A stretch of 64,000 nucleotides of DNA from a virus: the IMG/VR virus record IMGVR_UViG_3300036766_000876, positions 1-64,000 of that record; one strand, given 5' to 3'. The notes under the pieces are model-generated. The model searched no databases. It was given only the letters and a program-made list of their open reading frames with translations, and was not told the DNA's origin. Positions 1 through 48,735 of the stretch are shown in pieces. Made by a program: the position numbers and the translations under genes. The stretch's first letter is position 1. Each line of letters begins with the position of its first letter.

Positions 1-62
1 GGGCATCTGGTTCTCCGGAGGTAGCTGTCAAGCAAGGCGGTCGAGGAATACCACACTACGTT

Positions 63-1928: not shown

Positions 1929-1937
1929 GGGGGGTGC

Positions 1938-2147: not shown

Positions 2148-2183
2148 GTCGGTTGTCCTTGTACAACGAAATGGTGAGACTCG

Positions 2184-3143: not shown

Positions 3144-3146
3144 GGC

Positions 3147-3362
3147 TCAGCTCTTTTTCTGGATGCGCACGACGACGGCCTCTGGCCCGTCCTTGCCGTC
3201 GGGGTTCCAGAAGAACGCCGCGTCATGGCCGGCGAAGTCGGCCCCATCACGCTTCGTCGCCAGCGCGACGATGAGCCCGCGGAGCTCCTCTGCGCTGATG
3301 GGGTGGCGCTTGCCGGCCATCGCGGGATCGGACATCAAGGCTTCGGCTTCCTCGTTCGTCAT
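3147..3362 (-). CDS. Hypothetical protein
   Basis: Compact ORF within the operon. Confidence 0.55.
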   Translation of the reverse strand: MTNEEAEALMSDPAMAGKRHPISAEELRGLIVALATKRDGADFAGHDAAFFWNPDGKDGPEAVVVRIQKKS

Positions 3363-18867: not shown

Positions 18868-18894
18868 CTTGCCCGGGCCCGCCCGCTTTTTCCC
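18868..18894 (-). promoter_or_regulatory. GGGAAAA-N13-GGGCAAG phage promoter motif
   Basis: Exact match, 9 nt upstream of ATG 18858. Confidence 0.7.
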
Positions 18895-21602
18895 TACCGG
18901 CTGAGGACGTCCATCCGGCCAGCCTCGACGCGCATGGAGCCGAGGCGGTGCCCCTCGCGGGCGAACCAGCTCGCCATGAGGGAGTCCCCGGTATGCGCTG
19001 CGGGCGCGTAGTAGAGCATCTCCTGGATCCACGTCGCGATTTCTGGATGGGCCGGCATCCCGCCTCGGGAGGGGATGATCCACTTCCGGCCGGCGAGCTC
19101 CGTCGCCATCGACTCGATGCCGAACTCCGGGTGCGCCTTGTTCCGCCCCGTGGTGAACGGCCTGATGGGGACGGCGAAAGCGCCCCTGGCGAACTGGACG
19201 ATGAAGTCCTGAGCGTTGTGAACGACGAAGTCCTCCACCGTGTAGCTCTCGTCCTCCTCGACGGTGAGGTTGAAGACGGCCCCTCCCTTGTTGTCGAGGA
19301 ACGGCGCCTCCTCCATGTCTGGCACCTTGCTCCAACCGTGGAGCCTCTCCAGTACGATGGTGCCGTTTGACTTGCGCCTCGTCTTGGCGGCATCGCTCTC
19401 GAACCAGCGCTTCCAACGTTCCGCCTCCGTCGGCGTTGTCATCCTCTTCCGCAAAGCGCTTGAGCCCTCGTGCGTGAGGGTGAGCAGGTTGAGCGGGCGC
19501 CGCGTCACGACTCGCCCCTCGATGCTGTCTGTCTTCCGGTCGCTGGCGCTGAGCGCCATCGGGATGCCGGCCTGCCCCAGCGTGCTCCGGACGAACATCA
19601 TCCAGTCCCTGGAGATGCTGCACCCAGACAGGAACCACTGCGGCCACTTCGTCGAGGCGTTGTTGGGGCGCGCGCAACCGTCCCCCATCAGCCAGCCGCG
19701 CACCAGCGCGAGGCGGAGCCTCAGTGGCCAGCCCATCCACTTGAGGGGCAGGCACTTCTTGGCGCCCGTCCCGATCCGGAGCGCGTTCGCGAGCTGCGTC
19801 GAGGAGACGACGACGCGCAGCGTGCCCCTGTCCGTTGGGCGCAGCGTCACCTTCCCCCTCACGAGCTTCCACACCTCTCGCTCCACGAGGGCCGCGAGGT
19901 ACGTCTCCTTCTTGCCGAACGTCCAGTACACCTGGCCGCGCGTGGCGTGCCCCTCCGCCATGAAGAGCCCCAGCACGAGGGCGAGGTCCTCCGTGACGGG
20001 CACCGTCTTCGCGGCGTCCCTGAGCGTCTCCGGCAGGTGGAACTGTGCCTTCAGGGCAGGCCAGCGGGGCAGCGCCACCGCCGCGTACGCCGGCTCATCG
20101 CGCACCCCGTAGGACACCCACTGCGCCGCCCCGACTGGCCGGTGGTGGCCCGTCGAGGAGCGCCCGGCCTTGCGGAGCCAGAACCAATGGTTGGGCGTCG
20201 TGACGACTGGCAAGCAACCCTTCGCCTGCGCCCTCACCGTCGTCTGGGCGGTGCCCTCATGCGTCCCGGTGACGGGGCGCCAGCGCCCCTTGTGCGTCCA
20301 GACGAGGTCCCCGAGCTGGACCTGCTCGATGGGCTTGTAGCCCTCGCTGGTGAGCACGCGAGTCCCTGGGGCGAAGCAGGCGTTGTTCTCCACCACGACG
20401 ATGGAGAGGAACCGGCGGTGGTGGTCGATGATGCGGGAGACAATCTCCGGCCCGCTCCACTTCCCCCGCTCGATGTTCAGCACCTCCCTGTCGTTGGTGT
20501 TGGGATGGACGGCGATGGTGAAGAGCACCGTCGAGTCGGAGCCATCCTTCTGCTGCACGGCGAGGTCCACTCCCGTGTACGTCTTGAAGCCCGGGGGGAG
20601 CTTGTCCATCCCGTAGCAGAGCTGCTTGCCCTCGCCACGCGCCAGGCAGACGTCGATCCACTCCTTCTTGAAGCGGGCCTCGTCGTCGGAGCGCGCCACG
20701 CAGAGGAGCTGTCGGGCGAACTCCAGTGGCCCCAGCGTCTCCCGGACGCGGGCGATGCGCTCTGGGGGCCAGCGCTCCGCCCACCTCGGAGTGCCGTCCT
20801 CCAGGAGCACCGGGTAGCGCATCGCCTTGAAGCCCGGCATGCGAGCCAGCCGGTGGAGGGCGTCGTCGGGGTGGAAGGCCGTGCCCACGACGAGGACGCG
20901 CCCCTTTGACGTGAGGCGGGAGAGGCAAGCCGCCTGGAGCCACGCGAAGCAGTCCTCCCTCCCCTGCGCGCTGCGGGTGTTCTCCACGTCGAGGAGGTCA
21001 TCCACGATGAGGAGGTCGAGCCGGGAGCCGAGGATGTTTCCGTGGACGCCGATGCCCTGGATGGAAGGGTCCTTCGAGATGCTCTGACGCTTCACCGTGA
21101 TGGCGCTCGTCGTCCACTGGTCCGAGCTGGGGCGGAGGTCCGGGAACACCGCGTGGAGCTCCGGGCTCGACTCGATGTACCGCTTGATGGAGCGGAGCAC
21201 CTTCTGGCTCTGCCCCGCCGTGTTGGAGACGATGCCGATGCGCAGACCCTTGTCCCGCCCGAGCTCGAAGAGCGTGCGGGCGATGCTGAGCTGGCTCGTC
21301 TTCCCGGACTCGATGGAGCTCCAGAGCATCAGCCTGTCGTTCTCGCTCGCCAGCTTGTGCCAGGCCCGGTGGACCTCCGCCTGCTCCAAGGGAAGGCCAG
21401 TCCGCTCGTCTCGCATGACGGTAGTGACGAAGCAGTTGATGTCCTCACGGGCGGCCTCCAGGAGGTTCTGCGTCAGGTAGGCGTCGGACTCGGCATCGAG
21501 CGGCACCTCCACGGCCAAGTCCAGGGCAGCAGGCTGCCCCGCCGGCCAAGCACTGAGGGTGGGGCCGCCGAAGAGGCTGGTTGGCGTTGGGGCGTTTGCC
21601 AT
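18894..21602 (-). CDS. terL: Terminase large subunit containing an intein
   Basis: Walker A SIESGKTS, Walker B LLIVDD, VGT coupling motif, nuclease GVDLA and HTGDSLMA. Confidence 0.9.
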   Translation of the reverse strand: MANAPTPTSLFGGPTLSAWPAGQPAALDLAVEVPLDAESDAYLTQNLLEAAREDINCFVTTVMRDERTGLPLEQAEVHRAWHKLASENDRLMLWSSIESGKTSQLSIARTLFELGRDKGLRIGIVSNTAGQSQKVLRSIKRYIESSPELHAVFPDLRPSSDQWTTSAITVKRQSISKDPSIQGIGVHGNILGSRLDLLIVDDLLDVENTRSAQGREDCFAWLQAACLSRLTSKGRVLVVGTAFHPDDALHRLARMPGFKAMRYPVLLEDGTPRWAERWPPERIARVRETLGPLEFARQLLCVARSDDEARFKKEWIDVCLARGEGKQLCYGMDKLPPGFKTYTGVDLAVQQKDGSDSTVLFTIAVHPNTNDREVLNIERGKWSGPEIVSRIIDHHRRFLSIVVVENNACFAPGTRVLTSEGYKPIEQVQLGDLVWTHKGRWRPVTGTHEGTAQTTVRAQAKGCLPVVTTPNHWFWLRKAGRSSTGHHRPVGAAQWVSYGVRDEPAYAAVALPRWPALKAQFHLPETLRDAAKTVPVTEDLALVLGLFMAEGHATRGQVYWTFGKKETYLAALVEREVWKLVRGKVTLRPTDRGTLRVVVSSTQLANALRIGTGAKKCLPLKWMGWPLRLRLALVRGWLMGDGCARPNNASTKWPQWFLSGCSISRDWMMFVRSTLGQAGIPMALSASDRKTDSIEGRVVTRRPLNLLTLTHEGSSALRKRMTTPTEAERWKRWFESDAAKTRRKSNGTIVLERLHGWSKVPDMEEAPFLDNKGGAVFNLTVEEDESYTVEDFVVHNAQDFIVQFARGAFAVPIRPFTTGRNKAHPEFGIESMATELAGRKWIIPSRGGMPAHPEIATWIQEMLYYAPAAHTGDSLMASWFAREGHRLGSMRVEAGRMDVLSR
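19215..20378 (-). mobile_element. 388-aa intein with LAGLIDADG homing endonuclease
   Basis: Starts CFAPGTRVLT; block B TTPNH; LGLFMAEG and RGWLMGDG; ends VFNLTVEEDESY...VVHN; +1 residue is Ala. Confidence 0.92.
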
Positions 21603-25208: not shown

Positions 25209-25942
25209 CAGAAGGCCCCCTGGTTGGCCGCATGGGAGAAGTGCCGAGGCCTGTCGCGGAACTCTCGCCAGGAGTGCTCCCCAAGGAGCCTGTTGGCCGC
25301 GTCCTGGGCGAGCACCTCCCTGGCGAGCGCCAACACCACCGGGCAGAAGCGGTACGGGGTGCGCTCCGCCCCCTCGCAGACGGGGATGTGAGGCCACCCC
25401 ACCATCGCCTTCCAGAGCCCGTCGTGGTCGAGCCCGAGGAGGTCCTGCGCCTGCCCCTGGCTGAGCGTCTCTCCCTTGGGCTCCGCCCGCATCTGGAAGC
25501 GGATGCTCTCGAAGCCTGTTGTGTAATTCCTGGACCGCATGTGAAGGAGCTCGGAGCCTTCCCACAGCGGGAGCGGTGCCTCCTTCGAGCAGCGGGCGCA
25601 GAGCCACTTCCCACCGAGCTTGATGGTCGGCTTCCCACGGCAGCGCCGGTAGTCCCGCGGGCGGGCCTTGAGGAAGGCGAGCAGCGGGCCGGTACCCCGA
25701 GCCCTCGGCTTGACGGGGTAGAGCTGCCGGTTGGCGCACTTGGGGAACGGCTCAAAGGCGAGCTCGAAGCGTTCGTCGGTGGCCGGCCAGCCGTTGTAGA
25801 CGCTGTACGCCGGGAAGAGCCGCTCACCCTTGAACTCGCGCGCCTTCGACTCCTCGGGCAGGGCCGCCTGGATGGCGGTGGCAAGCCCGTCACGCCAGGC
25901 CTTCACCATCGCACGCTTGCGGTACCCGCGGAGCCACGTCAT
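25208..25942 (-). CDS. Hypothetical protein with RL-G tag
   Basis: ...AQDAANRLLGE... Confidence 0.55.
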   Translation of the reverse strand: MTWLRGYRKRAMVKAWRDGLATAIQAALPEESKAREFKGERLFPAYSVYNGWPATDERFELAFEPFPKCANRQLYPVKPRARGTGPLLAFLKARPRDYRRCRGKPTIKLGGKWLCARCSKEAPLPLWEGSELLHMRSRNYTTGFESIRFQMRAEPKGETLSQGQAQDLLGLDHDGLWKAMVGWPHIPVCEGAERTPYRFCPVVLALAREVLAQDAANRLLGEHSWREFRDRPRHFSHAANQGAF

Positions 25943-26415
25943 CGCTTCCACCAGAGGAAGACGGAGCCGAACTCGGGCTGGCCCTGCTTCTTCGCCAGGA
26001 GGTCCCCGGGCTTCCCGTACTGGAGGCGTGCCGGGAGGAAGCGAACATGCAGTGGGGAGCCAGGCCTGTCGCGGAACGGCTCGACGTGCTCGTGCCACCA
26101 GGCGAGGTCCGTCCGCGTCGCGGGGAGGAGCATCCCGATGACCTTCACCACGCGGCGCCTGCGCCTCCACTCACTCCAGGCCTTCTTCACCCAGGGGCCC
26201 ACGTTGCTCCAGGGAGGGTTGCACCAGACGCGCCCCCACCAGGAATGGAGGAGCCCGTTGTCGGCCTTGGTGAGGTACTTCGGGGCGAGGTGCGCCTCCA
26301 GGCAGGCCGCCACGTCGAGGTCCCACGCCTTCACGCCGGCAGCGGCGTTGCAGAGCAGCTTGACGTGCTCCAGCGTGTAGCGCTCGTCGGTGTCGAGGTC
26401 CGCGATGCCCACCAC
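25939..26415 (-). CDS. DNA N6-adenine methyltransferase (phage Dam-like family); start uncertain
   Basis: DLDVAA, DNGLLHSW, VWCNPPWS, MLLPATRTDLAWWH. Confidence 0.85.
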   Translation of the reverse strand: MVGIADLDTDERYTLEHVKLLCNAAAGVKAWDLDVAACLEAHLAPKYLTKADNGLLHSWWGRVWCNPPWSNVGPWVKKAWSEWRRRRRVVKVIGMLLPATRTDLAWWHEHVEPFRDRPGSPLHVRFLPARLQYGKPGDLLAKKQGQPEFGSVFLWWKR

Positions 26416-26464
26416 CTCCGGGAAGGCTTCGAGCTGACCCGTCAGGGCCCACCGGAGACTCCGC

Positions 26465-26701
26465 TCAGCCGCCGATGAGGCGGGTGACGGCCTCTTGGGC
26501 GAGGGCCGCCTCGACGTCTGAGCGGCGGTAGTAGATGGCGACGTGCGAGCCATCCCTCACCAACCTCCGTTCGAGGCCAATCTGGAGGTAGTCGCTGGCG
26601 TGGCGCCTGTCGGCCAGGGAGTTGAGCGACATAGCGAGCTCGTCCGGATCGACGGAGTGCTCCATCGCTGCCTGCTCCACGCTGACCCAGGAGTCGTCCA
26701 C
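26465..26701 (-). CDS. Small HTH-like protein with C-terminal RL-GG tag
   Basis: ...AQEAVTRLIGG*. Confidence 0.55.
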   Translation of the reverse strand: MDDSWVSVEQAAMEHSVDPDELAMSLNSLADRRHASDYLQIGLERRLVRDGSHVAIYYRRSDVEAALAQEAVTRLIGG

Positions 26702-26712
26702 ACGCCCTCCCC

Positions 26713-26739
26713 CTTGCCCCGGCCGGCCTACTTTTTCCC
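26713..26739 (-). promoter_or_regulatory. GGGAAAA-N13-GGGCAAG phage promoter motif
   Basis: Exact match upstream of GTG 26701. Confidence 0.7.
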
Positions 26740-27276
26740 GAGGAGCCTGACCTCCAACACCTCAAGCAGCGACTCGGGCGGTAGCACGGCCACCAATTCC
26801 AGCCTGTCCTCCTCCGGGAAGCCATCGAAGAAATTACGCGCCTTGGTGACGCGCCCTTTCACCCACGTTGGGTTCTGGAGCTCCGTCCCGGCGACTGCCG
26901 CGCGCTCCGCTCGACGCTTCTCCCCGAGGCCTGGAGGGAGCGAGACGAGGGCGCACACCTGGCGGACTCCGGTGTTGCCAAAGAAGGTGCGTGCAGTGCT
27001 GTTGCTGAAGCGGTCCCCATCGAGCACCGTCAGCAGAGCCTTCTGGTAGAGCACCTCCCGCCAGAAGCCCAGCGCCACGTCCACGCCGTTGTAGGGCACG
27101 GTGTCCGCACCATCGAACGCCGCGCCTGTGTAGTGCCCGGCAGCGACCACTCGGGGACCGATGGTCCACTTCGGCTTCGCCTGGAGGCGCACTTCCGCGT
27201 CGAGGAGCCCGCGGGCCAGCGTCGTCTTGCCTGAGCCGGGCTCCCCCACCAGCCAGAGGACAGTCCCCCGGTTCAC
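26728..27276 (-). CDS. P-loop nucleotide kinase of the DNA-modification cluster
   Basis: GEPGSGKTT, GHY...FDGADT, DGDRF, QNPTWVKGR. Confidence 0.75.
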   Translation of the reverse strand: MNRGTVLWLVGEPGSGKTTLARGLLDAEVRLQAKPKWTIGPRVVAAGHYTGAAFDGADTVPYNGVDVALGFWREVLYQKALLTVLDGDRFSNSTARTFFGNTGVRQVCALVSLPPGLGEKRRAERAAVAGTELQNPTWVKGRVTKARNFFDGFPEEDRLELVAVLPPESLLEVLEVRLLGKK

Positions 27277-28124
27277 GCGAACCCCAACAAGTGCAGCGCC
27301 TGCTCTGCTGCCCAGAAGCTCATCAAGCCCCCAATGCGGCCGCCCCCCGTGGCGACCACCAGCGAGTCCGCGACGGCAGTCACCGTCGGGCCCTTGTCCA
27401 CCAGCGGGCGCCAGCCATGGTAGCGCCGCACCTCTTGGCGCTCCCCGAGGTACGGAGCGACGCGCGCCAGCATCTTCTGGATGTACTCCTCGGAGTGCCC
27501 CTCGCGCTTCTCCTGCGTGGCGCAGACGCGAATCATCCCCGGGTTCCACTCCCGGACGGCAATCTGGTTGTACGGGGTGACTTCATGGAGGAGCACCTCC
27601 TTGTGCGGGGGCTCACCCGCGAGAATCACCCCAGACCCAGCCAGCCGCTTGACGCCAATCGTTGGTAGGCCGCTGGCCGAGAGCAGCTCGTCGGTCCACG
27701 CGCCAGCGGCCACGACCACCCCGCGGGCTTGCCAACGCTCACCCGTCACCTGCACGAAGCCGGAGCCGACACGCTCCACCTCTGCTTCCGCGTCTGGAGG
27801 GCGGAGCGCGAGGAACCCAGCCGGGCTGAACGTGTACCAGTCCTGTCGGTAGCGGGACTTGGTGCGGTCCTTCATCCCATGGACACGCGCACCCGAGTTG
27901 TAGAGCGCAACGCCACAGCTCTCCGCCTGTGCGCGGGCCCGCTGGAGCCGGCCCTTCCACTCACCGCTGTACCAGCCATCCGCGAAGTACCCACTGGCAG
28001 CGGGGCTCGCTGCCTCCGCGCGAGCACCGTCCACCAGCAGGACAGAGTGCCCCGCGCGCTCCGCCATCAGCGCCGTCGCGACGCCCCAGTACCCAGCGCC
28101 CACCACGATGAGGTCCGCGTCCAC
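27273..28124 (-). CDS. FAD-dependent oxidoreductase (glycine/D-amino-acid oxidase-like)
   Basis: VVGAGYWG, VVAAGAW, GWRP, ATGGGRIG. Confidence 0.85.
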   Translation of the reverse strand: MDADLIVVGAGYWGVATALMAERAGHSVLLVDGARAEAASPAASGYFADGWYSGEWKGRLQRARAQAESCGVALYNSGARVHGMKDRTKSRYRQDWYTFSPAGFLALRPPDAEAEVERVGSGFVQVTGERWQARGVVVAAGAWTDELLSASGLPTIGVKRLAGSGVILAGEPPHKEVLLHEVTPYNQIAVREWNPGMIRVCATQEKREGHSEEYIQKMLARVAPYLGERQEVRRYHGWRPLVDKGPTVTAVADSLVVATGGGRIGGLMSFWAAEQALHLLGFA

Positions 28125-28535
28125 TCACAGCCTCCGGTAGATGTTGAAGAGCCGAGTCCCATCAGTACTCGTCTTCTGCCCGGCGAGCGAGAAGCCAAGG
28201 CGCTGGTAGAAGCTGTTGGACTCGGCGCTGTCGGCGTTCGTCTTCAGCTCCATTGGGTAGCCGATGGCTGCGAGCAGCTCCTTGCCGAGGCCCTGTCGCT
28301 TGGCTGCCGGGTCCACCGCCACCTCGTAGAGGACCTTCACGCCGTCGCGCTGCCTGGTGAGGTAGTGGGCGAAGGCGAGCTCGGGGATGCCGATCCACCG
28401 CGCGTTCTTCGGGAGCGGGTTCCATGCACGCCACCAGATGACGCCCGGGTCCGTCCCCAGGATGTGCTCGTAGTGCTTCCAGATGCGAATCACCCATGGC
28501 TTGTCGGCCAGGGTGAGGCCCACGACGCGGCTCAC
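28125..28535 (-). CDS. GNAT acetyltransferase
   Basis: VAVDPAAKRQGLGKEL and SNSFYQRLGF. Confidence 0.85.
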   Translation of the reverse strand: MSRVVGLTLADKPWVIRIWKHYEHILGTDPGVIWWRAWNPLPKNARWIGIPELAFAHYLTRQRDGVKVLYEVAVDPAAKRQGLGKELLAAIGYPMELKTNADSAESNSFYQRLGFSLAGQKTSTDGTRLFNIYRRL

Positions 28536-29416
28536 ACCAGCACCTCGCCCGTCTTGAGGTAGTGCCCCTTGAGCTCCTTGCGCACGCCCATCCAGCCGCC
28601 GAACTCCCCCAGGTACTTGTGGTCGAACGAAGCGAGGCGCGCCTTCTTCAGAGCCTCGGAGCAGGGGGCCAGTGTCTCCCGCTGTTGGTCGAGGTCGTGC
28701 CCCATGTAGTACGAGCCCTTCGAGAGGGAGTTGAAGTCGCAGCAAGCCGTCTCCAGCATGTCGAGCCCGTTGAATGGCACCAGCCGGCGGACTGCCTCGT
28801 CGTGGACGGCCTGCTGGAGCTCGACATCGACCACGATTCGCTTCCAGCTCTCACCAGTGATGCGGACCATGCCCGGCACCGGGCCCGCCGTCTCACCGCC
28901 GCCTCCGACTCCAATGTCCGCCGCGGTGATGGGGTAGCCATGGACGTTCTTCAGGAGGTCGGCCCACTTGTAGCTACTCCAGTGGCCGCCGTACGGCACC
29001 TGTTGGAAGGCCCCGCGCACCTGCTGCCAGCCGGCCTTCCCGCCCGGCCCAACGGCCGCCTCCACCCAGTTGCTCAGCTTCCCACCGAAACGGGAGCGTA
29101 CGAGTGCGAGGAGGGTGTTCACATGGAGCGCTGCCAGGTTGTTCCCTCGGAAGCCTCTGCGCTCAGTACCGGTGGCGAGGCGCAGGTCGTTGGGGAGCTC
29201 CCTTGGAGAGGGATAGCGGGTCCACGCCAGCTCAGCGCTGCTCAGGTTGTACCAAGTCACGTACAGGAGGGTGCGCCACAGGGCCTGCTCCGTGGGGATG
29301 CCCTCGTCGGCGTAGAAGCGCTTGAGCACGGGGTACGTCGGGTCGAGGTCCCCGCTGACAATCTGAGCCGTGGCGAAGGTGCAGAACTTCGCGAACACCG
29401 GCTCCACCAGCTTCAT
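28532..29416 (-). CDS. Amino acid:DNA transferase (aGPT-Pplase2 family)
   Basis: GDLDPTY, TERRGFR, GHWSSYKWADLL, LETACCDF, YYMGHDLD motifs. Confidence 0.75.
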   Translation of the reverse strand: MKLVEPVFAKFCTFATAQIVSGDLDPTYPVLKRFYADEGIPTEQALWRTLLYVTWYNLSSAELAWTRYPSPRELPNDLRLATGTERRGFRGNNLAALHVNTLLALVRSRFGGKLSNWVEAAVGPGGKAGWQQVRGAFQQVPYGGHWSSYKWADLLKNVHGYPITAADIGVGGGGETAGPVPGMVRITGESWKRIVVDVELQQAVHDEAVRRLVPFNGLDMLETACCDFNSLSKGSYYMGHDLDQQRETLAPCSEALKKARLASFDHKYLGEFGGWMGVRKELKGHYLKTGEVLV

Positions 29417-30249
29417 GGAGCCGCCGGCCCGCGGCGCTTCTGCTCGCGGGAGGTCTTCACAGCGCGGATCCGCTCCAGCTCCTGGATGGGCGTGCCGCAG
29501 TGACACATCCCCTGGAGCGCGTAGTAGACGATGGTGTAGCGGTAGGCCCGCGGGGAGAGCTTCCTGAACGGGGTGACTCCATGAAGGAAGTGCTGCGCGT
29601 TGAAGATGCTCAACGTGCCGTCGCGTACCGCCAGAGCCACGTCGAGCTGGGGCACCGCCAGGTAGCCCCCCTCCAGGTCCTTCTTGAAGGTGAGCATCGC
29701 GTTCCAGGTGCCCGGGTAGTTCCCAGTGTCGAAGTGGTACCGGAGCAGGTTGTTCCAGTTGCAGATGCCGCTGGTGTAGCTGCTGTTGGGGAGAATCCAC
29801 TCCGGCTTCGTCTGCGCGCGGACGATGGCCTCTTGGTGGGCCGCCTGCTCCGGGAGGTAGTGCTTGAGGTAGCGCGTCGCCAGGGCAGCGCCTTCGCACA
29901 AGACGGAGTGCTCCGCTGGTGACTCATGGGCGAGCGCGGCTGTCGTGCAGAAGTCCCGCCGGATGGTGATGCGCGGCTGGTACCCGATGACCCTACTCGT
30001 CGTCTTCAAGCCCGCCGTCCTGGCGGTGGACTGGTACTCGATGGCCTGCACCGCGTTGCGGATGGCGGACGTCTCCTCTGTTGGTGGCACGATGTACAAG
30101 CCGGCCAACACGCCATCCACGTACAGCAGGGAGGACTCCTCCAGTAGCTGGGAGCAGTCCTCCGCCTTGGGGGCAACCTTGCGCAGGAGCTTCTTGGTGT
30201 CGAGCTCCCTGCTCTTGAGGTCCACCCTCGGCAGGACCGGGAACGTCAC
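29413..30249 (-). CDS. TET/JBP-family 2OG-Fe(II) dioxygenase
   Basis: YHFDTGN (HxD), GGYLAVP, LHGVTP, RYTIVYY. Confidence 0.85.
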   Translation of the reverse strand: MTFPVLPRVDLKSRELDTKKLLRKVAPKAEDCSQLLEESSLLYVDGVLAGLYIVPPTEETSAIRNAVQAIEYQSTARTAGLKTTSRVIGYQPRITIRRDFCTTAALAHESPAEHSVLCEGAALATRYLKHYLPEQAAHQEAIVRAQTKPEWILPNSSYTSGICNWNNLLRYHFDTGNYPGTWNAMLTFKKDLEGGYLAVPQLDVALAVRDGTLSIFNAQHFLHGVTPFRKLSPRAYRYTIVYYALQGMCHCGTPIQELERIRAVKTSREQKRRGPAAP

Positions 30250-30941
30250 GCCTTGCTCGGTTTCTCCCAGTGCTCCAGGAGCTTCTGGAAGACCTCGGTG
30301 TTGGAAGCGACGCCCATTGCCTTCTGGGCCGCCTCCAGCCGCGTGACGATGACGTCGTACTGTGGTGCCTCGAAGTACAGGACGATCTGCTTGATTTCCG
30401 CCGCCAAGAACTTGGGGAGGAGCTCGTCGGGCGAGGCACCAACGACCGGAGCCGTCGCGGCTGCGACCTCCCTGTCAAGGGCGTCGAGGTCCGTCTGCTG
30501 GAAGCCCGTGCCGAGGAGTGTGGATGTGTCCGAGAGGTCGCGCAGGATGTCGGCCAGCCCCGCCTCGTCCCACCCACCAATCTCCACCAGGCGGTTCGAG
30601 GTCAGCAAGTACGCCTCTGCCTCCGCCACGTCCTTGAAGGCGACGCCCCGCACCACAGGGACCATCCAGTCCTGGCCCTTCATGGCGATGCGCGCTGGTG
30701 GCGTCTTCCCTGCGGCCTTCCGTCGCTGGAGCGCCTCCAGCCGCCCGTGGCCGGCCACCAGCTTCCCGGACTTCTCATCCAGGATGAGAGGCTCTGTGAA
30801 GCCGAAGCGTTCAAGGCTCGCGTCGATTCCAGGCTCGTCGTGCTTCTTGGGGTTGCGCGGCCAGCGCTGAACCTCCGCCAGTGGGACGTACTCGACGCGG
30901 TAGCCCTTCTCTGCCTGCTTCTCGGTCATCACGGCCTCCAT
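30246..30941 (-). CDS. ParB/Srx N-terminal domain protein
   Basis: PRNPKKH, SLERFGFTEPL, LVAGHGRLEA. Confidence 0.85.
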   Translation of the reverse strand: MEAVMTEKQAEKGYRVEYVPLAEVQRWPRNPKKHDEPGIDASLERFGFTEPLILDEKSGKLVAGHGRLEALQRRKAAGKTPPARIAMKGQDWMVPVVRGVAFKDVAEAEAYLLTSNRLVEIGGWDEAGLADILRDLSDTSTLLGTGFQQTDLDALDREVAAATAPVVGASPDELLPKFLAAEIKQIVLYFEAPQYDVIVTRLEAAQKAMGVASNTEVFQKLLEHWEKPSKA

Positions 30942-30954
30942 GTGTCAAACCACC

Positions 30955-31266
30955 CTAGCCCCGCTTCGACCGCGCTCCAAGCATCCGCGCGGCCTGTGCA
31001 GAACGAATCCGACGAGAGCGCTCCCGGTACACAGAAGCCCACTCGCTCCATGCCTCGACGGAGCGCACCGCGTACCACCAGCCGCCGCGGCGCCCAAGCG
31101 GCTTCATGTCGAAGACACCGGCCCGCTTGGCGCTCATGAAGGCGCTGGGGCTGAGGATGCCGTACGGCCAACCAACCCAGTGGATGTAATCCCGGAACTC
31201 CCCATCCACGAGCGGTGGCCGATCCGGAACGGAGTCTCCTGTTGCCCTCCGGTCAAGCTCAGCCAC
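30955..31266 (-). CDS. Hypothetical protein
   Basis: Fills the gap; ends AQAARMLG (tag-like). Confidence 0.5.
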   Translation of the reverse strand: MAELDRRATGDSVPDRPPLVDGEFRDYIHWVGWPYGILSPSAFMSAKRAGVFDMKPLGRRGGWWYAVRSVEAWSEWASVYRERSRRIRSAQAARMLGARSKRG

Positions 31267-31275
31267 TGGGGAGCC

Positions 31276-32892
31276 TCACGAGACTCTCCCCGCCTCCACC
31301 TTCCAGCGGAGCGCAGCGGGTGCCCTGGCAGCGAGGGACTCGTTGTGCGTGATGAGGACGACGGCCCTGTCCTTGGCGAGCTCCGCCAGGACATCCACAA
31401 CCGCCTCGATGCCATCGTCGTCGAGGGCGTCCATCACCTCGTCGAGGAAGAGCGTTCCCCGGCCGGCGAAGGCGAGGAGGAGGGCGAGGTCTATCCGCCG
31501 CCGCTCCCCACCGCTGCTTGCCTTGTAGCCCTCGCCACCGCCAGCCCCAAGGACGGTGATGCCGATGGCGTCAGAGAGGCCTCCGGCCTTCCTCTCGCTG
31601 TAGGGCTTGAGCTCAAGCCGCAGCCCCGGCCCGGCCAGCCGGGCCAACCACCCATTCGCGGCCGCCTCAAGCCCGGAGAGCAGCCGGGTGAGCATCCCTG
31701 CGCGCGCGCCACGCAGGCCAAGGGCAGCTTCAGCCGCAGTGAGTATCGTTGCCTCTCGGCGCAGCGAGGGCAGCTCCTGCTCAACCTCCTGCCGCAGTGC
31801 CTCCGCCTTTTGCTGCTCCGCAGCGGCCCTGGCGAGCGTGTCCTCCGCCGTCTTCCGGCTTCGCCCGGCCTGCTCCGCCGCCCCGGCCTCCCGGCTGGCC
31901 GCAGCTTCCCTCTCACGCAGACGGGAGAGCGTCTTCTCGTCGTCCGAGAGCTGCACCGCGAGGGCCTCCAATTCCCCGGCCTTCGCTTCCCTCGCGCCCT
32001 TGGCGGCCGCCTCTGCTGCCAAGGCGTCCTGCTCCAGCCGGGTGCGCGCAGCCACGTCTACCGGGAGGGTCTGTCCGCACTCGCCGCAGGTTGCCCCGGG
32101 CTTCGACAGCCGTCCAAGCCGGTGGCGGACGTTGACGGCCTCCTGTCGGTGGACAGACTCCGCTGAGGCGAGCTCCTGCTGCTCCTTGCGCAGGTCCTTG
32201 AGCGAGGCCTCGGTGGTGCGTACGGAATGTCTGAGGTTGGCCAGCACCGTCCCATGACCACCAAGCGGTGGCGCTGGTGGGAGTGCCGCCAGAGTGCGCT
32301 CAGCGTCCTCCCGCCGAGTACCGTGGAGCTCCGCCTCGCGCTGGAGCATTTGCGCGCGCCCGGTGGATGCGTCCAAGCGGGTCTGCACACCGCGAAGCTC
32401 CGCACGACAGCGTTCCAGCGCGGCGTCGAAGCGCCCGAGGCCCAGCCACGCCTCCAGGAAGAGCTTGCGCTCCTTGTCCGTCGCCATGGTGAAGTGCGCC
32501 GCGTCCGCGCTGCTGAAGACGTGGGTGCGCCGCCAGGACTCGAAGCCGCCAATGACGGCCTCCAGCGCGTCCTGGGCCTTCGTGGTTGTCGGGTACTCGG
32601 TGCCGCGCCCCTCTGGGTCCGTCCATGAGAGCTTGGCTGAGCCGCTCTTGCGGATCCGCTCCGCGGTGGCCGCATCCGTCTCCAGCCTCACGCAGCAGGG
32701 CTTCTTCCCATCCCCGCCTGGATGTGTCCCCCGGAGCGTCTCACCGAAGGCCCCCCAGGCAACCGCCTCTGGGATGCTGGACTTGCCGCCGCCGTTAGGC
32801 CCCGTGACGACAACAAGGCCGCGCTCCGGGAAGTCGAGCACCGTGTCCTCGTGCTTGGTGAAGCCATCCAGCTCGACGCGGCTCACGTTCAC
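31276..32892 (-). CDS. SbcC/Rad50-like SMC ATPase
   Basis: GPNGGGKSS, zinc hook CGECGQ, SSGGERRR, FLDEVMDALD, ITH. Confidence 0.9.
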   Translation of the reverse strand: MNVSRVELDGFTKHEDTVLDFPERGLVVVTGPNGGGKSSIPEAVAWGAFGETLRGTHPGGDGKKPCCVRLETDAATAERIRKSGSAKLSWTDPEGRGTEYPTTTKAQDALEAVIGGFESWRRTHVFSSADAAHFTMATDKERKLFLEAWLGLGRFDAALERCRAELRGVQTRLDASTGRAQMLQREAELHGTRREDAERTLAALPPAPPLGGHGTVLANLRHSVRTTEASLKDLRKEQQELASAESVHRQEAVNVRHRLGRLSKPGATCGECGQTLPVDVAARTRLEQDALAAEAAAKGAREAKAGELEALAVQLSDDEKTLSRLREREAAASREAGAAEQAGRSRKTAEDTLARAAAEQQKAEALRQEVEQELPSLRREATILTAAEAALGLRGARAGMLTRLLSGLEAAANGWLARLAGPGLRLELKPYSERKAGGLSDAIGITVLGAGGGEGYKASSGGERRRIDLALLLAFAGRGTLFLDEVMDALDDDGIEAVVDVLAELAKDRAVVLITHNESLAARAPAALRWKVEAGRVS

Positions 32893-33536
32893 GTCGTCCT
32901 CCGCTCCTTCCAGGCGGCCACGGCGGAGGCAATCTCGTGCGTCACTTCCTCCAAGCCCGTCTTGGACACGATGACCCACCTGTCCGGGGAGCCCTCGTGG
33001 GCCATCTGCTTCCAAAGCTCCCGGTAGTTGTTGGCCACCTGCCAAAGGTGTTCCGCGTTCCGCTCGTACCTGTCACGCGCCTCAGGCCGGCGCTTCGCCA
33101 GGAGCTCTGGAGTGCTGTCGAGGAGGATGAACAAGTCGGGCTGTGGCAGCCACCTGTGGAGCCCGATGAGGTACTCGCCGTCGAGCCCATCGGCCTTGCC
33201 ATAGGCGTAGCCGGAGGGCCAGTAGCGGTCCATCACCACGTTGCCAGCGGCGGCATCCTCGAAGAGCTGGCTCGCCACCTCCATCCTGTTGGCCACCTGG
33301 AGCGCCTGGAAGACGAGGGCGTCGATGTGCTTCTCGCGCGCAACGTCGATGCCCTTCTGCACGTCGTCCTCGCTGTGCGTGGACCACGTCCCTGCCAGGT
33401 GCTCGTAGATGAGCTTCCCCGTCGGGCTGTCCTTGTTGGGGAACTTCCACAGCTTCGCCCGGAGCCGGCCCGCCAGGATCGCGCACTGCGTCGTCTTGCC
33501 GGACCCGTCCAGCCCCTCGATGCAAACGATTGCCAT
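32889..33536 (-). CDS. tmk: Thymidylate (dTMP) kinase
   Basis: IEGLDGSGKTTQ, FP, MDRYWPSGYAY, PQPDLFILLD. Confidence 0.9.
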   Translation of the reverse strand: MAIVCIEGLDGSGKTTQCAILAGRLRAKLWKFPNKDSPTGKLIYEHLAGTWSTHSEDDVQKGIDVAREKHIDALVFQALQVANRMEVASQLFEDAAAGNVVMDRYWPSGYAYGKADGLDGEYLIGLHRWLPQPDLFILLDSTPELLAKRRPEARDRYERNAEHLWQVANNYRELWKQMAHEGSPDRWVIVSKTGLEEVTHEIASAVAAWKERRTT

Positions 33537-33545
33537 GAACCTCTC

Positions 33546-33572
33546 CTTGCCCTCAGCGGGGCGTTTTTTCCC
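33546..33572 (-). promoter_or_regulatory. GGGAAAA-N13-GGGCAAG phage promoter motif
   Basis: Exact match, 9 nt upstream of the tmk ATG. Confidence 0.7.
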
Positions 33573-37474: not shown

Positions 37475-37501
37475 CTTGCCCCATGGGACTGACATTTTCC
37501 C
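37475..37501 (-). promoter_or_regulatory. GGGAAAA-N13-GGGCAAG phage promoter motif
   Basis: Exact match in the intergenic space after the polymerase. Confidence 0.7.
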
Positions 37502-40086
37502 TACAGCTTCACCTTCTCCAGGCTCCCCCAGGACGCCCCCATCTCGACGTCCACCTCCAGGGGCACGAAGTCGGTGGCCCAAGGGAAGTTGAGCATCTCG
37601 TGGCGAGCGGCCAGCGCGGCGTCCTTCCACGTCTTCTTGGGAGCCACCAGCATGATGCTGTCGTGGATGGGGAGCACGAGCTCCGCGTCGATGGCCCCGG
37701 CCTCGATTCGGCTCACCACGCGGGCGATGGAGGCGACGCAGAAGTCGCTGGAGGTGCCCTGGATGGGGCTGTTGATGGCGCCGTTCTTGGCATTGGAGGC
37801 CGCGTACCGCCCCTCGTCGCTGTCGTCCCCGATCCGCCACAGCGGCCGCCACCGGGCCTTCTGGCCCTCCCAGATTGTCCAGCAGCCGCCCGCGGCCCGA
37901 GCGAAGGACACAGCCTCCCTCGTCCAGCGGCCGTACGCCTTGAACTCCCCGAAGATGGCCGCACGAATGGCCGCCGCCCTGTGCTCGTCGATGCCGAGCT
38001 CCGCGGCCAGGGAGCGGTCCGTCTTCCCGTAGGCGATGCCAAAGTTGTACGCCTTGGCGCCTGTGCGGTGGACCTTCGTCACCTGCTCCGGCTCGATGTT
38101 CCAGGCGAGCTTGCAGATGAGCTTCGCTGTGCCGAGGTGGAAATCCACGCCTGACTTGAACAGCGCGGCCATGGCCTCGTCCCGGCTGAGGAGCGCCGCA
38201 ATCCGGAGCTCTAGCTGGCTGTAGTCGAGCTGGACGAGGACCTTCCCATGCGGCGCGCGGAAGCAGTCCCGGGCCCGCTTGCCGTCCGCGTCGTCCGCCC
38301 GTGGCAGGTTCTGGAGGTTGGGATTGCTGCACGACGTCCTTCCAGACCGCGCCCCGTCCAGGTGGATGCTGGGGCGGATCCTCCCGTCGTCGTCAACGTA
38401 CCGCGGCCAGTCGTCGGAGTAGCCCACGAGCTTCTGGTGGTGGCGGTACTCCAGGATGTACCCAGGGAGCGGGTGTTGCCCCTTGAGGAGGCTGAGCGCC
38501 TCCTCCCCAGTGCTCGGCGCCCCGCCCTCCGTCTTGAATGGCGGGTTGAGCCCGAGCTCGTCATACAGCACGCGCGCAAGCTGCTGCGGGCTGTCCACGT
38601 TGAGCGTCGTTCCACCAAGCGCGTACTGCTGCACCTTGTCGAAGGCCTCGTCGCGCGCCTGGCGAGCCATGTCCCCGAACAGGAGGCCCGCCTGCGCGTC
38701 GAAGGGCACACCCCACTCCTCCACGCGCTGGATGGCGACTGCCGCCGGCATCACGACGTTGTCGAGAATGGCCTGGCGCTCGGGGCTCCGCATCACCTCC
38801 AGGCTCAACCTCGACTCGATGCGCGCCGTGGAGAGCGCGTCCCGCGCGGCGTACCGCTGGCGGAGCTCCGGCTGGAGGAAGGCGAAGGCGATGGCCTTGG
38901 GGTTGGGGGCGTACTTGGCGATGTCGAAGCCCTGCCACTCCTCCAGGTCGATGTCGTTGAGGAAGCTGAACGAGCCTGTCCTCGCGGCGGCATCCTTTGC
39001 CTGCTGGGCGGCAGCCGTGGCGATGCGCAGACACACTGCGTCGAGCGCCTCGTCCGCCTCCCGCTTGTGGCCGCCCATCCCAACGAGCTCAGCCATGTCT
39101 GCCAGGTTGCCCGTCGCCTCCGGGTCCATCAGCTTCCGCTTCAGCCGCACATCGAAGGAGATGCCCCTCACGATGCAGCCGAGAGCCGACTTGAGCGCTG
39201 CCTGATCCACCTTGACGTTGGCCCCGCCCTTGGGCGCGCTGGCGTCCTCCAACAGGGAACGGAGAGGCGCGAACACGGCGGCATCGAGGAGCGCCTTCTC
39301 GCCCCAGACGAAGACTTCCTGTCCGCCAACAGGGGCCGCGGAGAGCTCCAGCAACTTGAAGTCGGGCCCCCACTTGCTCCCTGCGTACTCCAGGTCGAAC
39401 GCGAAGGAGTCCGCCGCCTTCAGGACACCAACAGCGGAGGCGCTGTCCTCCGGCGTCTCCACAACGGCTGCCTCCGCTGAGAGGTGCCACGGCTGCTGGA
39501 CGGCCGCCTTGAGCGCCCACCGGAGGTCCTCCTCGAAGTACTTCCACAGGAAGCGGTTGTGCCCACAGTCGCGTGGGTGGAGCACAAAGAAGACCGGCAC
39601 CGGCCTCCCGTCGTTCCACAGCCAGGTGTACGTCTTCCGCGCGTTGAGGGGCTGCACCCTGCGGCCCACAAAGGAGAGCGCCGCCTCCGCCCCGAGGAGG
39701 ACGACGCGATCCGGCTGCGTCTCCCTCAGCGTCTCCGCCAGGTGGCTCCGGCACGCCAGGATGTCACGGTCCGTCGTCTCCACCTTGCCGAGGCACCGGA
39801 TGCCGCTGTCCAAGACGATGCCACCGTCCCACCAGCGGCGTACCAACGGGCGGAGCTTCGCGCTCGCGGCCCCAACGAACGGCCGCCCCTCCATGTCCTC
39901 CGCCCTACCCGGACGGTCCCCTACGACAAGGAGCTTTGGCCCCTCGGCAGGGAACACCTCCGGCATGAGCACCCGCTTGCGCCCGTCCGACTGAGCGCAG
40001 CGGTTGCAATCCTGGCCAACCTGGCGTGGCGTGGCGAGCTCGACCGCGAGGCGCGGTGGCGTCGGGTAGAGCTTGATGCGCCGCAC
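37501..40086 (-). CDS. polA: Family A DNA polymerase with N-terminal uracil-DNA-glycosylase-like domain and 3'-5' exonuclease
   Basis: UDG4-like VVGDRPGRAED.EGRPFVG; exo FDLEY and YAARDA; motif A DYSQLELR, B KAYNFGIAYG, C IHDS. Confidence 0.93.
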   Translation of the reverse strand: MRRIKLYPTPPRLAVELATPRQVGQDCNRCAQSDGRKRVLMPEVFPAEGPKLLVVGDRPGRAEDMEGRPFVGAASAKLRPLVRRWWDGGIVLDSGIRCLGKVETTDRDILACRSHLAETLRETQPDRVVLLGAEAALSFVGRRVQPLNARKTYTWLWNDGRPVPVFFVLHPRDCGHNRFLWKYFEEDLRWALKAAVQQPWHLSAEAAVVETPEDSASAVGVLKAADSFAFDLEYAGSKWGPDFKLLELSAAPVGGQEVFVWGEKALLDAAVFAPLRSLLEDASAPKGGANVKVDQAALKSALGCIVRGISFDVRLKRKLMDPEATGNLADMAELVGMGGHKREADEALDAVCLRIATAAAQQAKDAAARTGSFSFLNDIDLEEWQGFDIAKYAPNPKAIAFAFLQPELRQRYAARDALSTARIESRLSLEVMRSPERQAILDNVVMPAAVAIQRVEEWGVPFDAQAGLLFGDMARQARDEAFDKVQQYALGGTTLNVDSPQQLARVLYDELGLNPPFKTEGGAPSTGEEALSLLKGQHPLPGYILEYRHHQKLVGYSDDWPRYVDDDGRIRPSIHLDGARSGRTSCSNPNLQNLPRADDADGKRARDCFRAPHGKVLVQLDYSQLELRIAALLSRDEAMAALFKSGVDFHLGTAKLICKLAWNIEPEQVTKVHRTGAKAYNFGIAYGKTDRSLAAELGIDEHRAAAIRAAIFGEFKAYGRWTREAVSFARAAGGCWTIWEGQKARWRPLWRIGDDSDEGRYAASNAKNGAINSPIQGTSSDFCVASIARVVSRIEAGAIDAELVLPIHDSIMLVAPKKTWKDAALAARHEMLNFPWATDFVPLEVDVEMGASWGSLEKVKL

Positions 40087-47298: not shown

Positions 47299-47519
47299 GC
47301 CTGGCTGCCCATCATTCGGGCCGCCTCCGGGCTGGTCTGCTTCAGGTAGGCGACGACGCTCCGCCACTCAACCCAGTGGGCGGCACCGAGGCGCTCCCCA
47401 TGGACGGCACCAGCCTTAATCCAGTTGTAGATGGTCGGGAGGGTGAGCCCCAGGCGCGCGGCCACCTCCTTGGCGGGCACGTACCCCTTGGCGCGTAGCT
47501 TGTCCTTGATGTTGAGCAT
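47295..47519 (-). CDS. HTH DNA-binding protein (excisionase/HTH_17-like)
   Basis: AKEVAARLGLTLPTIYNWIKAG. Confidence 0.8.
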   Translation of the reverse strand: MLNIKDKLRAKGYVPAKEVAARLGLTLPTIYNWIKAGAVHGERLGAAHWVEWRSVVAYLKQTSPEAARMMGSQA

Positions 47520-48190
47520 CAGCTTGCCTCCTTGCGCTTCGTGTCTTCCCCGAGGAGCACCATCAGCCCCGCGGCCATGTCTCCGCCCTTGCCCGCCGCC
47601 CTGCGCAGGCCCTTCTTGGCGCGCAGGAAGTCCGCCCGCGCGGTGAACTCCAGCTCCAGGAGGAATGGCTTCGTTGGCGCGTCCTCCGCTTGGTAGTCCT
47701 CGGCGGAGGGCACGGCCATGTCCGGCGAGAGAGCGGCATCGACGTCCTGGCTGACCGCCCCCATCAGGTCCCTCACCTCGTCCTCGTTGAAGCCCGTCAC
47801 GGTGAGCTGCTCCGTGCTCCAGCCGGCCTCAGCGAGCTCCTTGAGGATGCTCCCCACCATCGTCAAGTCCGGCTCCCCGCGGAGGTTGTTCATCCCCACG
47901 CGGAGGGCCCGCTCCTCGTCCTCCGTCCCACTGGCCACGACGCAGGGCACCTCCCCCATGCCCAGCTTCCGCGCGGCCAGGAGGCGGTGGTGCCCGTCCA
48001 CCACGGAGAACAGAGTCTCCCCGTGGCGCTCCGCGCCCTTCAGCGGGCGCACCAGCAACGGCTGGAGGAAGCCGAACCGCTGGATGGCCAGGACGAGCAG
48101 GTCGAACTTCTCCGTGCTCATCTGGTTGGGGTTGTCCTGCGCCGGCTGGAGGAGCTCCACCCGGATGTTCCTGCTGACGACGTTGCTCAT
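47519..48190 (-). CDS. ParB N-terminal domain protein
   Basis: NPNQM, IQRFGFLQPLLVR, VDGHHRL, NNLRG. Confidence 0.85.
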   Translation of the reverse strand: MSNVVSRNIRVELLQPAQDNPNQMSTEKFDLLVLAIQRFGFLQPLLVRPLKGAERHGETLFSVVDGHHRLLAARKLGMGEVPCVVASGTEDEERALRVGMNNLRGEPDLTMVGSILKELAEAGWSTEQLTVTGFNEDEVRDLMGAVSQDVDAALSPDMAVPSAEDYQAEDAPTKPFLLELEFTARADFLRAKKGLRRAAGKGGDMAAGLMVLLGEDTKRKEAS

Positions 48191-48735
48191 CGTATCTCCT
48201 CGTACAGCGCTTGCGCCTCGCTGCTGCGCCGGGCTCGTCGGGTCATCTCCTTGCGGGCCCGGTACACCTCTGCCACGGGCACCGCCGCCTGGCGAGCGAG
48301 CTCGCTGGAGGTCACCAACCCCAGGGCCGCCGCCAGGCCCAGCTTCCCCTCTGTCGGGTCGAGCGGCCGCAGCACGTCGTAGACACGCTCCGCGAGCTGT
48401 CTGTCCTCCGCGAGGGAGGCCGGCGAGGGAGCGGTGGCGGCGAGTGTGTACAGCGGGTCTTCTCCGAGCGCTGTTGGGCAGGCGCGCTCCAACCCGTGCT
48501 GGGCCCTGTTGCAGACCCTGTCATCTCGGATTTCCCACCAGTGGCGCTGGACGCCCTTCAGGACGGCTCTGTAGCAGTAGGTCTTGAAGGGCCCCTTGTC
48601 CGGGTCGTACGTCTGACGTGCATCGAGGACGACGAGGACGGCCTGTTGGAGTAGGTCCTGCGCCACGTACCGAGCGATGGGCCTGCGCCGAAGGAAGTAC
48701 TGCGTCGCTGCCTGGGCAATCTCCATGTCTTCCAT
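48187..48735 (-). CDS. Phage sigma70-family factor (region 2 plus HTH)
   Basis: QDLLQQA...YDPDKGPFKTYCY; C-terminal SSELARQAAVPVAEVYR. Confidence 0.7.
   Translation of the reverse strand: MEDMEIAQAATQYFLRRRPIARYVAQDLLQQAVLVVLDARQTYDPDKGPFKTYCYRAVLKGVQRHWWEIRDDRVCNRAQHGLERACPTALGEDPLYTLAATAPSPASLAEDRQLAERVYDVLRPLDPTEGKLGLAAALGLVTSSELARQAAVPVAEVYRARKEMTRRARRSSEAQALYEEIR

Follow-up and report, generated by a model that had tools for sequence, protein, structure and literature searches.

A predicted TET-started, DNA-level pathway of thymine hypermodification in a complete IMG/VR virus genome

The operon and its reading frames

We analysed a window of 64,000 nucleotides, the first 64 kb of the 94,299-bp IMG/VR virus record IMGVR_UViG_3300036766_000876 (CheckV: 100% complete), and examined in it six minus-strand genes at 26728-30941, whose products are a ParB-like protein, a dioxygenase of the Tet_JBP family, an amino-acid:DNA transferase (AADT), a GNAT acetyltransferase, a DAO-type flavoenzyme and a Ploopntkinase3 kinase. 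The G+C content of the window is 68%, and nearly all genes lie on the minus strand. The six reading frames are all intact, with a third-position GC content (GC3) of 0.84-0.91, and adjacent genes share 4-nt start/stop overlaps or abut. An earlier note, made from the sequence without database searches, had described these genes as a tight operon; coding signal, overlaps and matches to Pfam and PHROG families confirm that the genes are real, intact and correctly read. From the ParB-like gene to the kinase gene, they are:

30246..30941, minus strand: ParB-like protein, 227-231 aa; predicted activator of the adjacent thymine dioxygenase
29413..30249, minus strand: Tet_JBP Fe(II)/2-oxoglutarate dioxygenase (hereafter TET), 278 aa; predicted to oxidise thymine to 5-hydroxymethyluracil (5hmU) on DNA
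28532..29416, minus strand: AADT (PF18724, formerly aGPT-Pplase2), 294 aa; predicted to replace phosphate by glycine on 5-phosphomethyluracil
28125..28535, minus strand: GNAT acetyltransferase, 136 aa; predicted to acetylate 5-aminomethyluracil
27273..28124, minus strand: DAO-family flavoenzyme, 283 aa; predicted N-alpha-glycinyl-thymine oxidase/lyase yielding 5-aminomethyluracil and glyoxylate
26728..27276, minus strand: Ploopntkinase3 P-loop kinase (PF18751), 182 aa; predicted 5hmU-DNA kinase

Pfam matches were judged against the curated cut-offs, and all matched operon domains exceed theirs. The closest DNA match among cultured phages was a stretch of 285 bp (67%) inside the TET gene, and nothing else was found; the PolA of the phage is at most ~30% identical to that of any cultured phage.

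The ParB-like protein and the TET dioxygenase

Phage Tet_JBP enzymes of two clades have been shown in vivo and in vitro to be thymine dioxygenases (O'Toole et al., PNAS 2026, PMC13229309; preprint 10.1101/2025.08.14.668559). One of these clades needs a neighbouring ParB-like protein on double-stranded DNA and is consistently linked to P-loop kinases and AADTs (PMC13229309), for which the preprint methods name PF18751 and PF18724.

The operon TET matches PF12851 (37.5 bits; cut-off: 34.9; E-value: 1.7e-9) and keeps the Fe(II)/2-oxoglutarate centre HxD...H...R, with H172, D174, H223, R237 and C251 invariant across 14 aligned homologues taken from related loci. Its AlphaFold2 (AF2) model (predicted local distance difference test, pLDDT: 90.7) has a TET-type jelly-roll fold with PDB fold matches at E-values down to 4e-12; CcTet, NgTET1, CMD1 and human TET2 stand at the top, and the top 26 matches listed are all members of the TET family. 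C251, which we assume to be equivalent to C280 of 5mYOX176, is followed by a C-terminal extension of 27 residues containing a helix (254-273); a C-terminal extension has been seen only in the ParB-dependent enzymes (O'Toole et al., PMC13229309).

The operon ParB matches PHROG 620, "ParB-like partition protein" (1.3e-27), and a Pfam search returned no match, helix-turn-helix (HTH) families included. Its likelier start is the ATG at 30929, which has a GGAGG 8 nt upstream and gives a protein of 227 aa, and the gene overlaps the start of the TET gene. In the AF2 model (pLDDT: 74.7; confident residues: 13-133) the best solved folds are pNOB8 ParB, KorB, Noc and the ParB proteins of Bacillus and Myxococcus. 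Its N-terminal domain is of the nucleotide-binding ParB/Srx type and is joined by a linker to a short C-terminal domain made of helices, of which those at 188-219 are conserved in the alignment of ParB homologues. Judged by its size (227 aa) and the absence of family matches rather than by a solved structure, the protein appears to be without a DNA-binding HTH.

A ParB homologue accompanies TET in 10 related loci with a full reading frame, that of L015 having an in-frame stop; it lies directly upstream of TET, or, in one locus (L024), with tailoring genes in between. Taken with the ParB requirement reported for related enzymes, this suggests that the operon ParB is probably an activator of the oxygenase and not a bystander, and it therefore belongs in the mechanism.

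Two further observations concern ParB genes. In the closest related operon (L015:4107-4766), the stop falls inside the conserved LLADN-R-LV motif and could be a sequencing error or the mark of a decayed activator gene. The genome analysed here also encodes a second ParB_N protein of 223 aa (47519-48190, minus strand), which adjoins a phage sigma-factor gene (48187-48735); it is 26% identical to the operon ParB in the N-terminal domain, and no C-terminal similarity was found.

The transferase, flavoenzyme, acetyltransferase and kinase

The reference for the remaining genes is the pathway of Pseudomonas phage PaMx11, which was reconstituted by Lee et al. (NAR 2021/22, PMC8989533); residue roles in its transferase gp46 and flavin enzyme gp47 were taken from Wen et al. 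2024 (PMC11472151; structures 8z2m and 8z2o).

The operon AADT matches PF18724 (ADDT; 36.7 bits; cut-off: 26.2; E-value: 4.8e-9), and its best PDB sequence match is 8z2m, PaMx11 gp46, at 24% identity; it is 31-34% identical to uncharacterised actinophage enzymes. In a 19-sequence alignment, D25, Y52, Y56, E85 and W146 correspond to gp46 D24, Y47, Y51, E92 and W146, and K150, E222, T223, C226 and D241 to gp46 K150, E243, T244, C247 and D262. All catalytic and glycine-contacting residues of gp46 are kept, namely the cysteine (C226), the metal ligands (E222/T223) and the glycine contacts (D25/W146/K150). Two positions of the phosphate pocket are changed, gp46 K261 to His and E265 to Gln.

The flavoenzyme matches PF01266 (DAO; 90.8 bits; cut-off: 27.9; E-value: 1.7e-25). 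Its best PDB match is 8z2o, the "flavin-dependent lyase" gp47 of PaMx11, which aligns end to end (residues 1-276; E-value: 1.1e-6) at 25% identity. W51, Y52, Y185 and Q187 correspond to gp47 W51, F52, Y180 and Q182, and R199, R207, R239 and R263 to gp47 K202, R210, R242 and K268. Of gp47, the enzyme thus keeps the base cage (W51, Y180 and Q182) and the Arg that binds the carboxylate (R242), and the K268 position is still basic; Leu takes the place of gp47 Y244.

For the GNAT protein, the Acetyltransf_7 model was matched at 35.8 bits (cut-off: 27; E-value: 1.1e-8), and three more GNAT models scored above their cut-offs. Against PaMx11 gp48 it is 38% identical over 68 aa (E-value: 4e-10, in a small database); this alignment covers the C-terminal, acetyl-CoA-binding half, and the N-terminal half was not alignable.

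The kinase matches PF18751 (34.0 bits; cut-off: 27; E-value: 2.7e-8) and has a Walker A motif. It is 46-54% identical to AADT-adjacent kinases in IMG/VR loci and 28-31% identical to the kinases of actinophage cassettes with the content ParB-TET-AADT-kinase. Compared with the validated PaMx11 kinase gp49, it gave a weak N-terminal match (E-value: 0.03); by Pfam, gp49 lies near PF18748 and gp50 is the PF18723 helical domain.

Substrate supply

Family searches over the whole 94,299-bp record found no thymidylate-synthase-like hydroxymethylase (PF00303) or ThyX (PF02511), no C5-methyltransferase (PF00145; also absent from two related records), no HMUDK-type kinase (PF18748) or helical partner (PF18723), and no HD-domain protein (PF01966) or dCMP deaminase (PF00383). 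As positive controls, PF12851 recovered the TET gene in this record and PF00303 recovered PaMx11 gp51 at 3e-26. PF00303 was likewise absent from the cultured phages Kozie and Wooper, whose genomes are complete and carry TET cassettes, and from a 170-kb complete record with a related cluster. The earlier note had seen no hydroxymethylase, canonical 5hmU-DNA kinase or C5-methyltransferase in the window and had proposed that the rest of the genome be searched for a thymidylate-synthase-like gene or a C5-methyltransferase; its statement holds for the whole record, and that search, made with working controls, found neither gene.

Related loci and exchange of modules

Homologous clusters were collected from IMG/VR, other metagenomes and cultured actinophages and are labelled here with L numbers. 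A single-protein scan of IMG/VR with the flavoenzyme returned nothing, whereas an alignment query did recover loci. Homologues of the flavoenzyme adjoin or lie near an AADT in 19 of the 20 loci retrieved, the exception being a 3-kb fragment, and across these loci the family occurs almost only beside AADTs, whether the locus carries TET or a thymidylate-synthase-like gene. In L042 and L053/54 the thymidylate-synthase-like gene is accompanied by HMUDK-type genes, an arrangement also found in PaMx11. GNAT genes recur beside the AADT in L015, L030/L039 and L050, and ~1.6 kb beyond the flavoenzyme in L041.

The order of genes varies among the TET-bearing loci: ParB-TET-GNAT-AADT-(290-aa protein)-kinase in L015; ParB-TET-GNAT-AADT-flavoenzyme, with the kinase ~4 kb away, in L030/L039; ParB-AADT-flavoenzyme-kinase-TET in L043-45, L052 and L058; and ParB-TET-AADT...flavoenzyme in L046, a contig of 37% G+C. 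L023/L024 carry ParB-AADT-(pyridoxal phosphate enzyme and/or radical SAM)-kinase-TET, which, as predicted from gene content, is an M6-like tailoring set (5-aminoethyluracil chemistry) placed behind TET instead of a hydroxymethylase.

Sequence identities do not run in parallel across the modules. In L014 the AADT (62%) and the kinase (54%) are the closest ones and TET is distant (25%), while L006-L013 have close ParB-TET pairs (TET: 36-38%) and no AADT at all. By these discordant identities, the entry and tailoring modules are exchanged independently.

A conserved protein of ~290 aa was also observed after the AADT or kinase gene in TET cassettes of actinophages and IMG/VR contigs (L001:3054-3926, L002:3761-4642, L015:6849-7718 and L017:6858-7757). 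This protein, of the type of Wooper gene 5, has an N-terminal GxGxxG Rossmann motif and gave one sub-cut-off DAO match (E-value: 1e-4); when it was compared with the gp47-type family by hhalign, only the first 45 residues, which hold the Rossmann motif, were aligned (probability: 9.6%).

The putative transcription unit and its surroundings

The window contains 13 copies of a bipartite motif, GGGAAAA-N13-GGGCAAG, where shuffling predicts 0.69, and every copy stands at a gene start. We regard it as a candidate for a class of promoters served by the phage sigma factor. The features that bear on the operon are:

33546..33572, minus strand: motif copy immediately upstream of where the thymidylate kinase gene starts; candidate promoter for the unit to which the operon belongs
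32889..33536, minus strand: thymidylate kinase (PF02223 at 2.2e-23), the first gene after the motif copy at 33546-33572
30955..31209, minus strand: open reading frame of 84 aa between an SbcC-like gene and the ParB gene, GC3 0.80; membership in the pathway uncertain
26713..26739, minus strand: next motif copy, overlapping the modification kinase's stop codon; marks where the next unit starts

Between 33546 and 26739 no further copy of the motif was found. If the motif is a promoter, the thymidylate kinase, the SbcC-like ATPase, the 84-aa frame (which has no Pfam or PHROG match) and the six modification genes would form one putative unit. It sits between replication and recombination genes (UDG-PolA, SSB, RecA and SbcD) and the terminase region. 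A thymidylate kinase of its own fits a phage that supports rather than removes its supply of deoxythymidine triphosphate (dTTP), replicating with normal dTTP and modifying the DNA afterwards; PaMx11, M6 and ViI use a dTTP-depleting strategy (Lee et al., PMC8989533).

Other genes of the record were noted in passing. The DNA polymerase (37501-40086, minus strand) is of family A with an N-terminal uracil-DNA-glycosylase (UDG) domain (PF03167 + PF01612 + PF00476). The UDG-PolA fusion has been described as a polymerase subfamily that occurs in phages with hypermodified thymidine such as SP-15 and YerA41 (2025 preprint, 10.1101/2025.03.26.645540), and here it co-occurs with a pathway predicted to start with TET. 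A gene for a Dam-type N6-adenine methyltransferase (25939-26553, minus strand; PF05869 at 8e-15) follows the operon directly and has a motif copy of its own in front, so the phage DNA may carry N6-methyladenine (6mA) in addition to a modified thymine. The large terminase (18894-21602, minus strand; 902 aa) contains an insert (residues ~402-484) with matches to intein-bearing PHROGs, and a terminase-like open reading frame after the related cluster in L030 also has a LAGLIDADG homing-endonuclease domain.

Proposed mechanism

In the reading that we prefer, the DNA would be replicated with ordinary dTTP, with the help of the thymidylate kinase encoded by the phage. Tet_JBP and the adjacent ParB-like protein, using Fe(II), 2-oxoglutarate and O2, would then convert a subset of the thymines of double-stranded DNA to 5hmU, and the Ploopntkinase3 kinase would phosphorylate the new hydroxyl with ATP to give 5-phosphomethyluracil. 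The conserved cysteine of the AADT would attack C6, the phosphate would leave and the amino group of glycine would join, giving N-alpha-glycinyl-thymine. The flavoenzyme would oxidise the glycyl C-N bond with departure of glyoxylate, leaving 5-aminomethyluracil, and the GNAT would acetylate this amine from acetyl-CoA to 5-acetamidomethyluracil. The corresponding nucleoside, 5-acetamidomethyl-deoxyuridine (5-AcNmdU), has a nominal mass of 299 (Lee et al. 2021, PMC8989533). The likely purpose of the pathway is protection of the phage DNA from host nucleases.

We hold the outline, a post-replicative and TET-started hypermodification of thymine, with high confidence; the full chain ending in 5-AcNmdU we consider probable, at a distinctly lower level of confidence. 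Oxidation of thymine to 5hmU and its dependence on ParB have been demonstrated for relatives of the entry enzymes (PMC13229309), and glycine transfer, flavin cleavage and acetylation for the PaMx11 enzymes (PMC8989533); what we infer is the kinase step for the PF18751 family, the use of glycine and the nature of the final product.

The earlier note had proposed that TET/JBP oxidises thymine in DNA, that the P-loop kinase activates the product and that the three other enzymes build an acetamidomethyl-type base. DNA-level oxidation is supported by the lack of a nucleotide-level 5hmU source or a 5-methylcytosine (5mC) source, by the HxD...H...R centre and TET fold, and by the ParB neighbour. Tailoring of the PaMx11 type is borne out by homologues of gp46 and gp47 with their active sites kept and by a GNAT resembling gp48. 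Because the best solved relative of the flavoenzyme is gp47 and the AADT keeps the catalytic residues of gp46, the steps of that note are the best reading of the operon; its account is to be amended in that the idea is not new and in that ParB, the probable oxygenase activator, belongs among the steps.

Several points weigh against the complete chain. Many ParB-dependent enzymes give less than 5% 5hmU in E. coli (PMC13229309). We found no demonstration in the literature that a PF18751 kinase phosphorylates 5hmU in DNA, and the validated kinase of PaMx11, a member of a different family, is accompanied by a helical partner, gp50 (PF18723), which this phage lacks. The operon enzymes have low identities to those of PaMx11 (AADT: 24%; flavoenzyme: 25%; GNAT: 38% over half of the protein), and the gene order is AADT-GNAT-FAD, where PaMx11 has AADT-FAD-AT. 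The conserved AADT residues are common to the whole family and hence do not fix the identity of the amino acid. Finally, the operon is likened to the 5mYOX clade C1 cassettes of O'Toole et al., as set out in the last section, by its features and gene context.

Alternative explanations

The chief rival keeps the same entry (ParB-assisted oxidation of thymine, phosphorylation and AADT transfer) and ends in a product other than 5-acetamidomethyluracil, through a different amino acid, a different oxidation by the flavoenzyme, or a GNAT that uses another acyl group or acts on the secondary amine before cleavage. It ranks first among the rivals because AADT specificity varies, identities to PaMx11 are 24-38% and half of the GNAT aligns. 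Within the AADT family the amino acid is glycine in M6 and PaMx11 and serine in ViI (Lee et al., PMC8989533, Table 1), and the operon enzyme, at 24% to gp46, is closer (31-34%) to the actinophage enzymes and differs from gp46 at both phosphate-pocket residues (K261 to His, E265 to Gln). The C-terminal half of the GNAT is the part that aligns with gp48, and the altered gene order points the same way. Set against this, the best solved relative of the flavoenzyme is an N-alpha-glycinyl-thymine oxidase, the enzyme retains the Arg by which the glycyl carboxylate is held, and the trio of AADT, flavoenzyme and GNAT occurs in several lineages, as would be expected of one shared chemistry. On balance we judge a different end product unlikely, if a serious competitor to 5-acetamidomethyluracil.

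A second possibility is that TET acts on 5mC made by the host, or on 6mA made by the downstream Dam-type methyltransferase, and that the base handled by the later enzymes is another one. Oxidation of 5mC is known from phage TETs of other clades and, in vitro, also from 5mYOX97 and 5mYOX176 (PMC13229309); the top structural match, CcTet, was solved with 6mA DNA; and the PF05869 methyltransferase gene lies close by (25939-26553). However, the complete genome has no C5-methyltransferase, the PF05869 gene has a promoter-like motif of its own in front of it, 5-substituted uracil is the only known substrate of AADTs and of the gp47-type lyase (PMC8989533, PMC11472151), and the ParB-linked TETs tested to date make 5hmU (PMC13229309). 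We consider a non-thymine substrate very improbable.

That the cluster is inactive or partly active through decay of its genes, or that ParB serves partition or packaging unrelated to the oxygenase, has in its favour the in-frame stop in the L015 ParB, the near inactivity of some ParB/5mYOX pairs in E. coli (PMC13229309) and the second ParB_N paralogue at 47519-48190, but six intact frames with strong coding GC3, conserved catalytic residues and a ParB-TET adjacency kept across distant loci make it hardly credible.

Significance

The preferred reading, post-replicative thymine hypermodification started by TET, makes the locus a clean natural modular swap: a DNA-level source of 5hmU (ParB, TET and the PF18751 kinase) stands ahead of PaMx11-type tailoring, in the place of a nucleotide-level module consisting of the hydroxymethylase, the dTTP-removing enzymes and an HMUDK kinase with its helical partner. 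As it stands, the operon leaves the current picture unchanged. We found no paper in which the steps that lead from 5hmU made by TET, by way of a PF18751 kinase, to a final base are reconstituted; since the six genes are short, intact and contiguous, they form a convenient set for this reconstitution, which would show a PF18751 kinase accepting TET-made 5hmU and a full hypermodified base being written after synthesis onto ordinary DNA. We would suggest, tentatively, that either PF18751 is a second family of 5hmU-DNA kinases, one that needs no partner, and the operon makes 5-acetamidomethyluracil wholly on the polymer, or the divergent transferase and GNAT yield an uncatalogued thymine derivative. 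If the former is true, this would be the first complete DNA-level route to 5-acetamidomethyluracil.

Comparison with known systems

The association of TET/JBP, ParB, kinases and aGPT-Pplases in phages was reportedly first recognised by Iyer and colleagues in 2013. The kind of pathway described here is not new: it was predicted in 2021 by Lee et al. (PMC8989533), who described IMG/VR metavirome contigs with TET_JBP replacing the hydroxymethylase and inferred formation of 5hmU in situ, and its first step was shown in 2026 by O'Toole et al. (PMC13229309).

The operon resembles PaMx11 gp46-gp49 in the lengths of the AADT, flavin lyase and GNAT (294/283/136 aa here and 292/286/140 aa in PaMx11), in the conserved active-site residues and in having the kinase encoded at the end of the cluster. 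It differs in the entry, as PaMx11 makes 5hmU before replication through the thymidylate-synthase homologue gp51 and has an HD-domain protein, where ParB and TET are found here, and in the kinase, which here is of PF18751 and in PaMx11 is an HMUDK-type enzyme partnered by the helical gp50 (PF18723).

With the 5mYOX clade C1 cassettes (e.g., 5mYOX176/ParB176) the operon shares a ParB-like gene directly upstream of Tet_JBP, the absence of a C5-methyltransferase, linkage to a kinase of PF18751 and a transferase of PF18724, an extended C-terminus beyond the last conserved Cys, and a ParB with nucleotide-binding and C-terminal domains and no recognisable HTH. The text of O'Toole et al. names GATases, kinases and AADTs for those cassettes, whereas the gp47-type flavin lyase and the GNAT found here are not discussed.

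Among cultured phages, similar cassettes occur in actinophages, including Gordonia phage Wooper (genes 1-5; OP910132), Rhodococcus phage Tonitrus (PP978825; PMC11955845) and Mycobacterium phages such as Phelemich and Reprobate. They carry ParB, a J-binding protein that is Tet-like, aGPT-Pplase2 and a kinase in the same order, are already annotated as thymidine hypermodification, and are 31-35% identical to the TET, AADT and kinase of the operon. Unlike the operon, they have no GNAT, the conserved ~290-aa protein replaces the DAO-type enzyme, and their position is immediately ahead of the terminase, at the end of the genome. Microbacterium phage Kozie (OK040792) encodes in genes 1-4 (positions 1-3273) a TET, an AADT, a DAO flavoenzyme and a PF18751 kinase, all annotated "hypothetical"; it differs in having no ParB and no GNAT and, like the phage with the operon, has no thymidylate-synthase-like gene. 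From these genes Kozie is predicted to make 5-aminomethyluracil from thymine and, being a cultured phage, is directly testable. Of the IMG/VR clusters, L030/L039 and L015 are 38-58% identical to the operon and differ in gene order. The best explanation of the operon is that a thymine dioxygenase of the ParB-dependent kind has been joined to a PaMx11-type tail.

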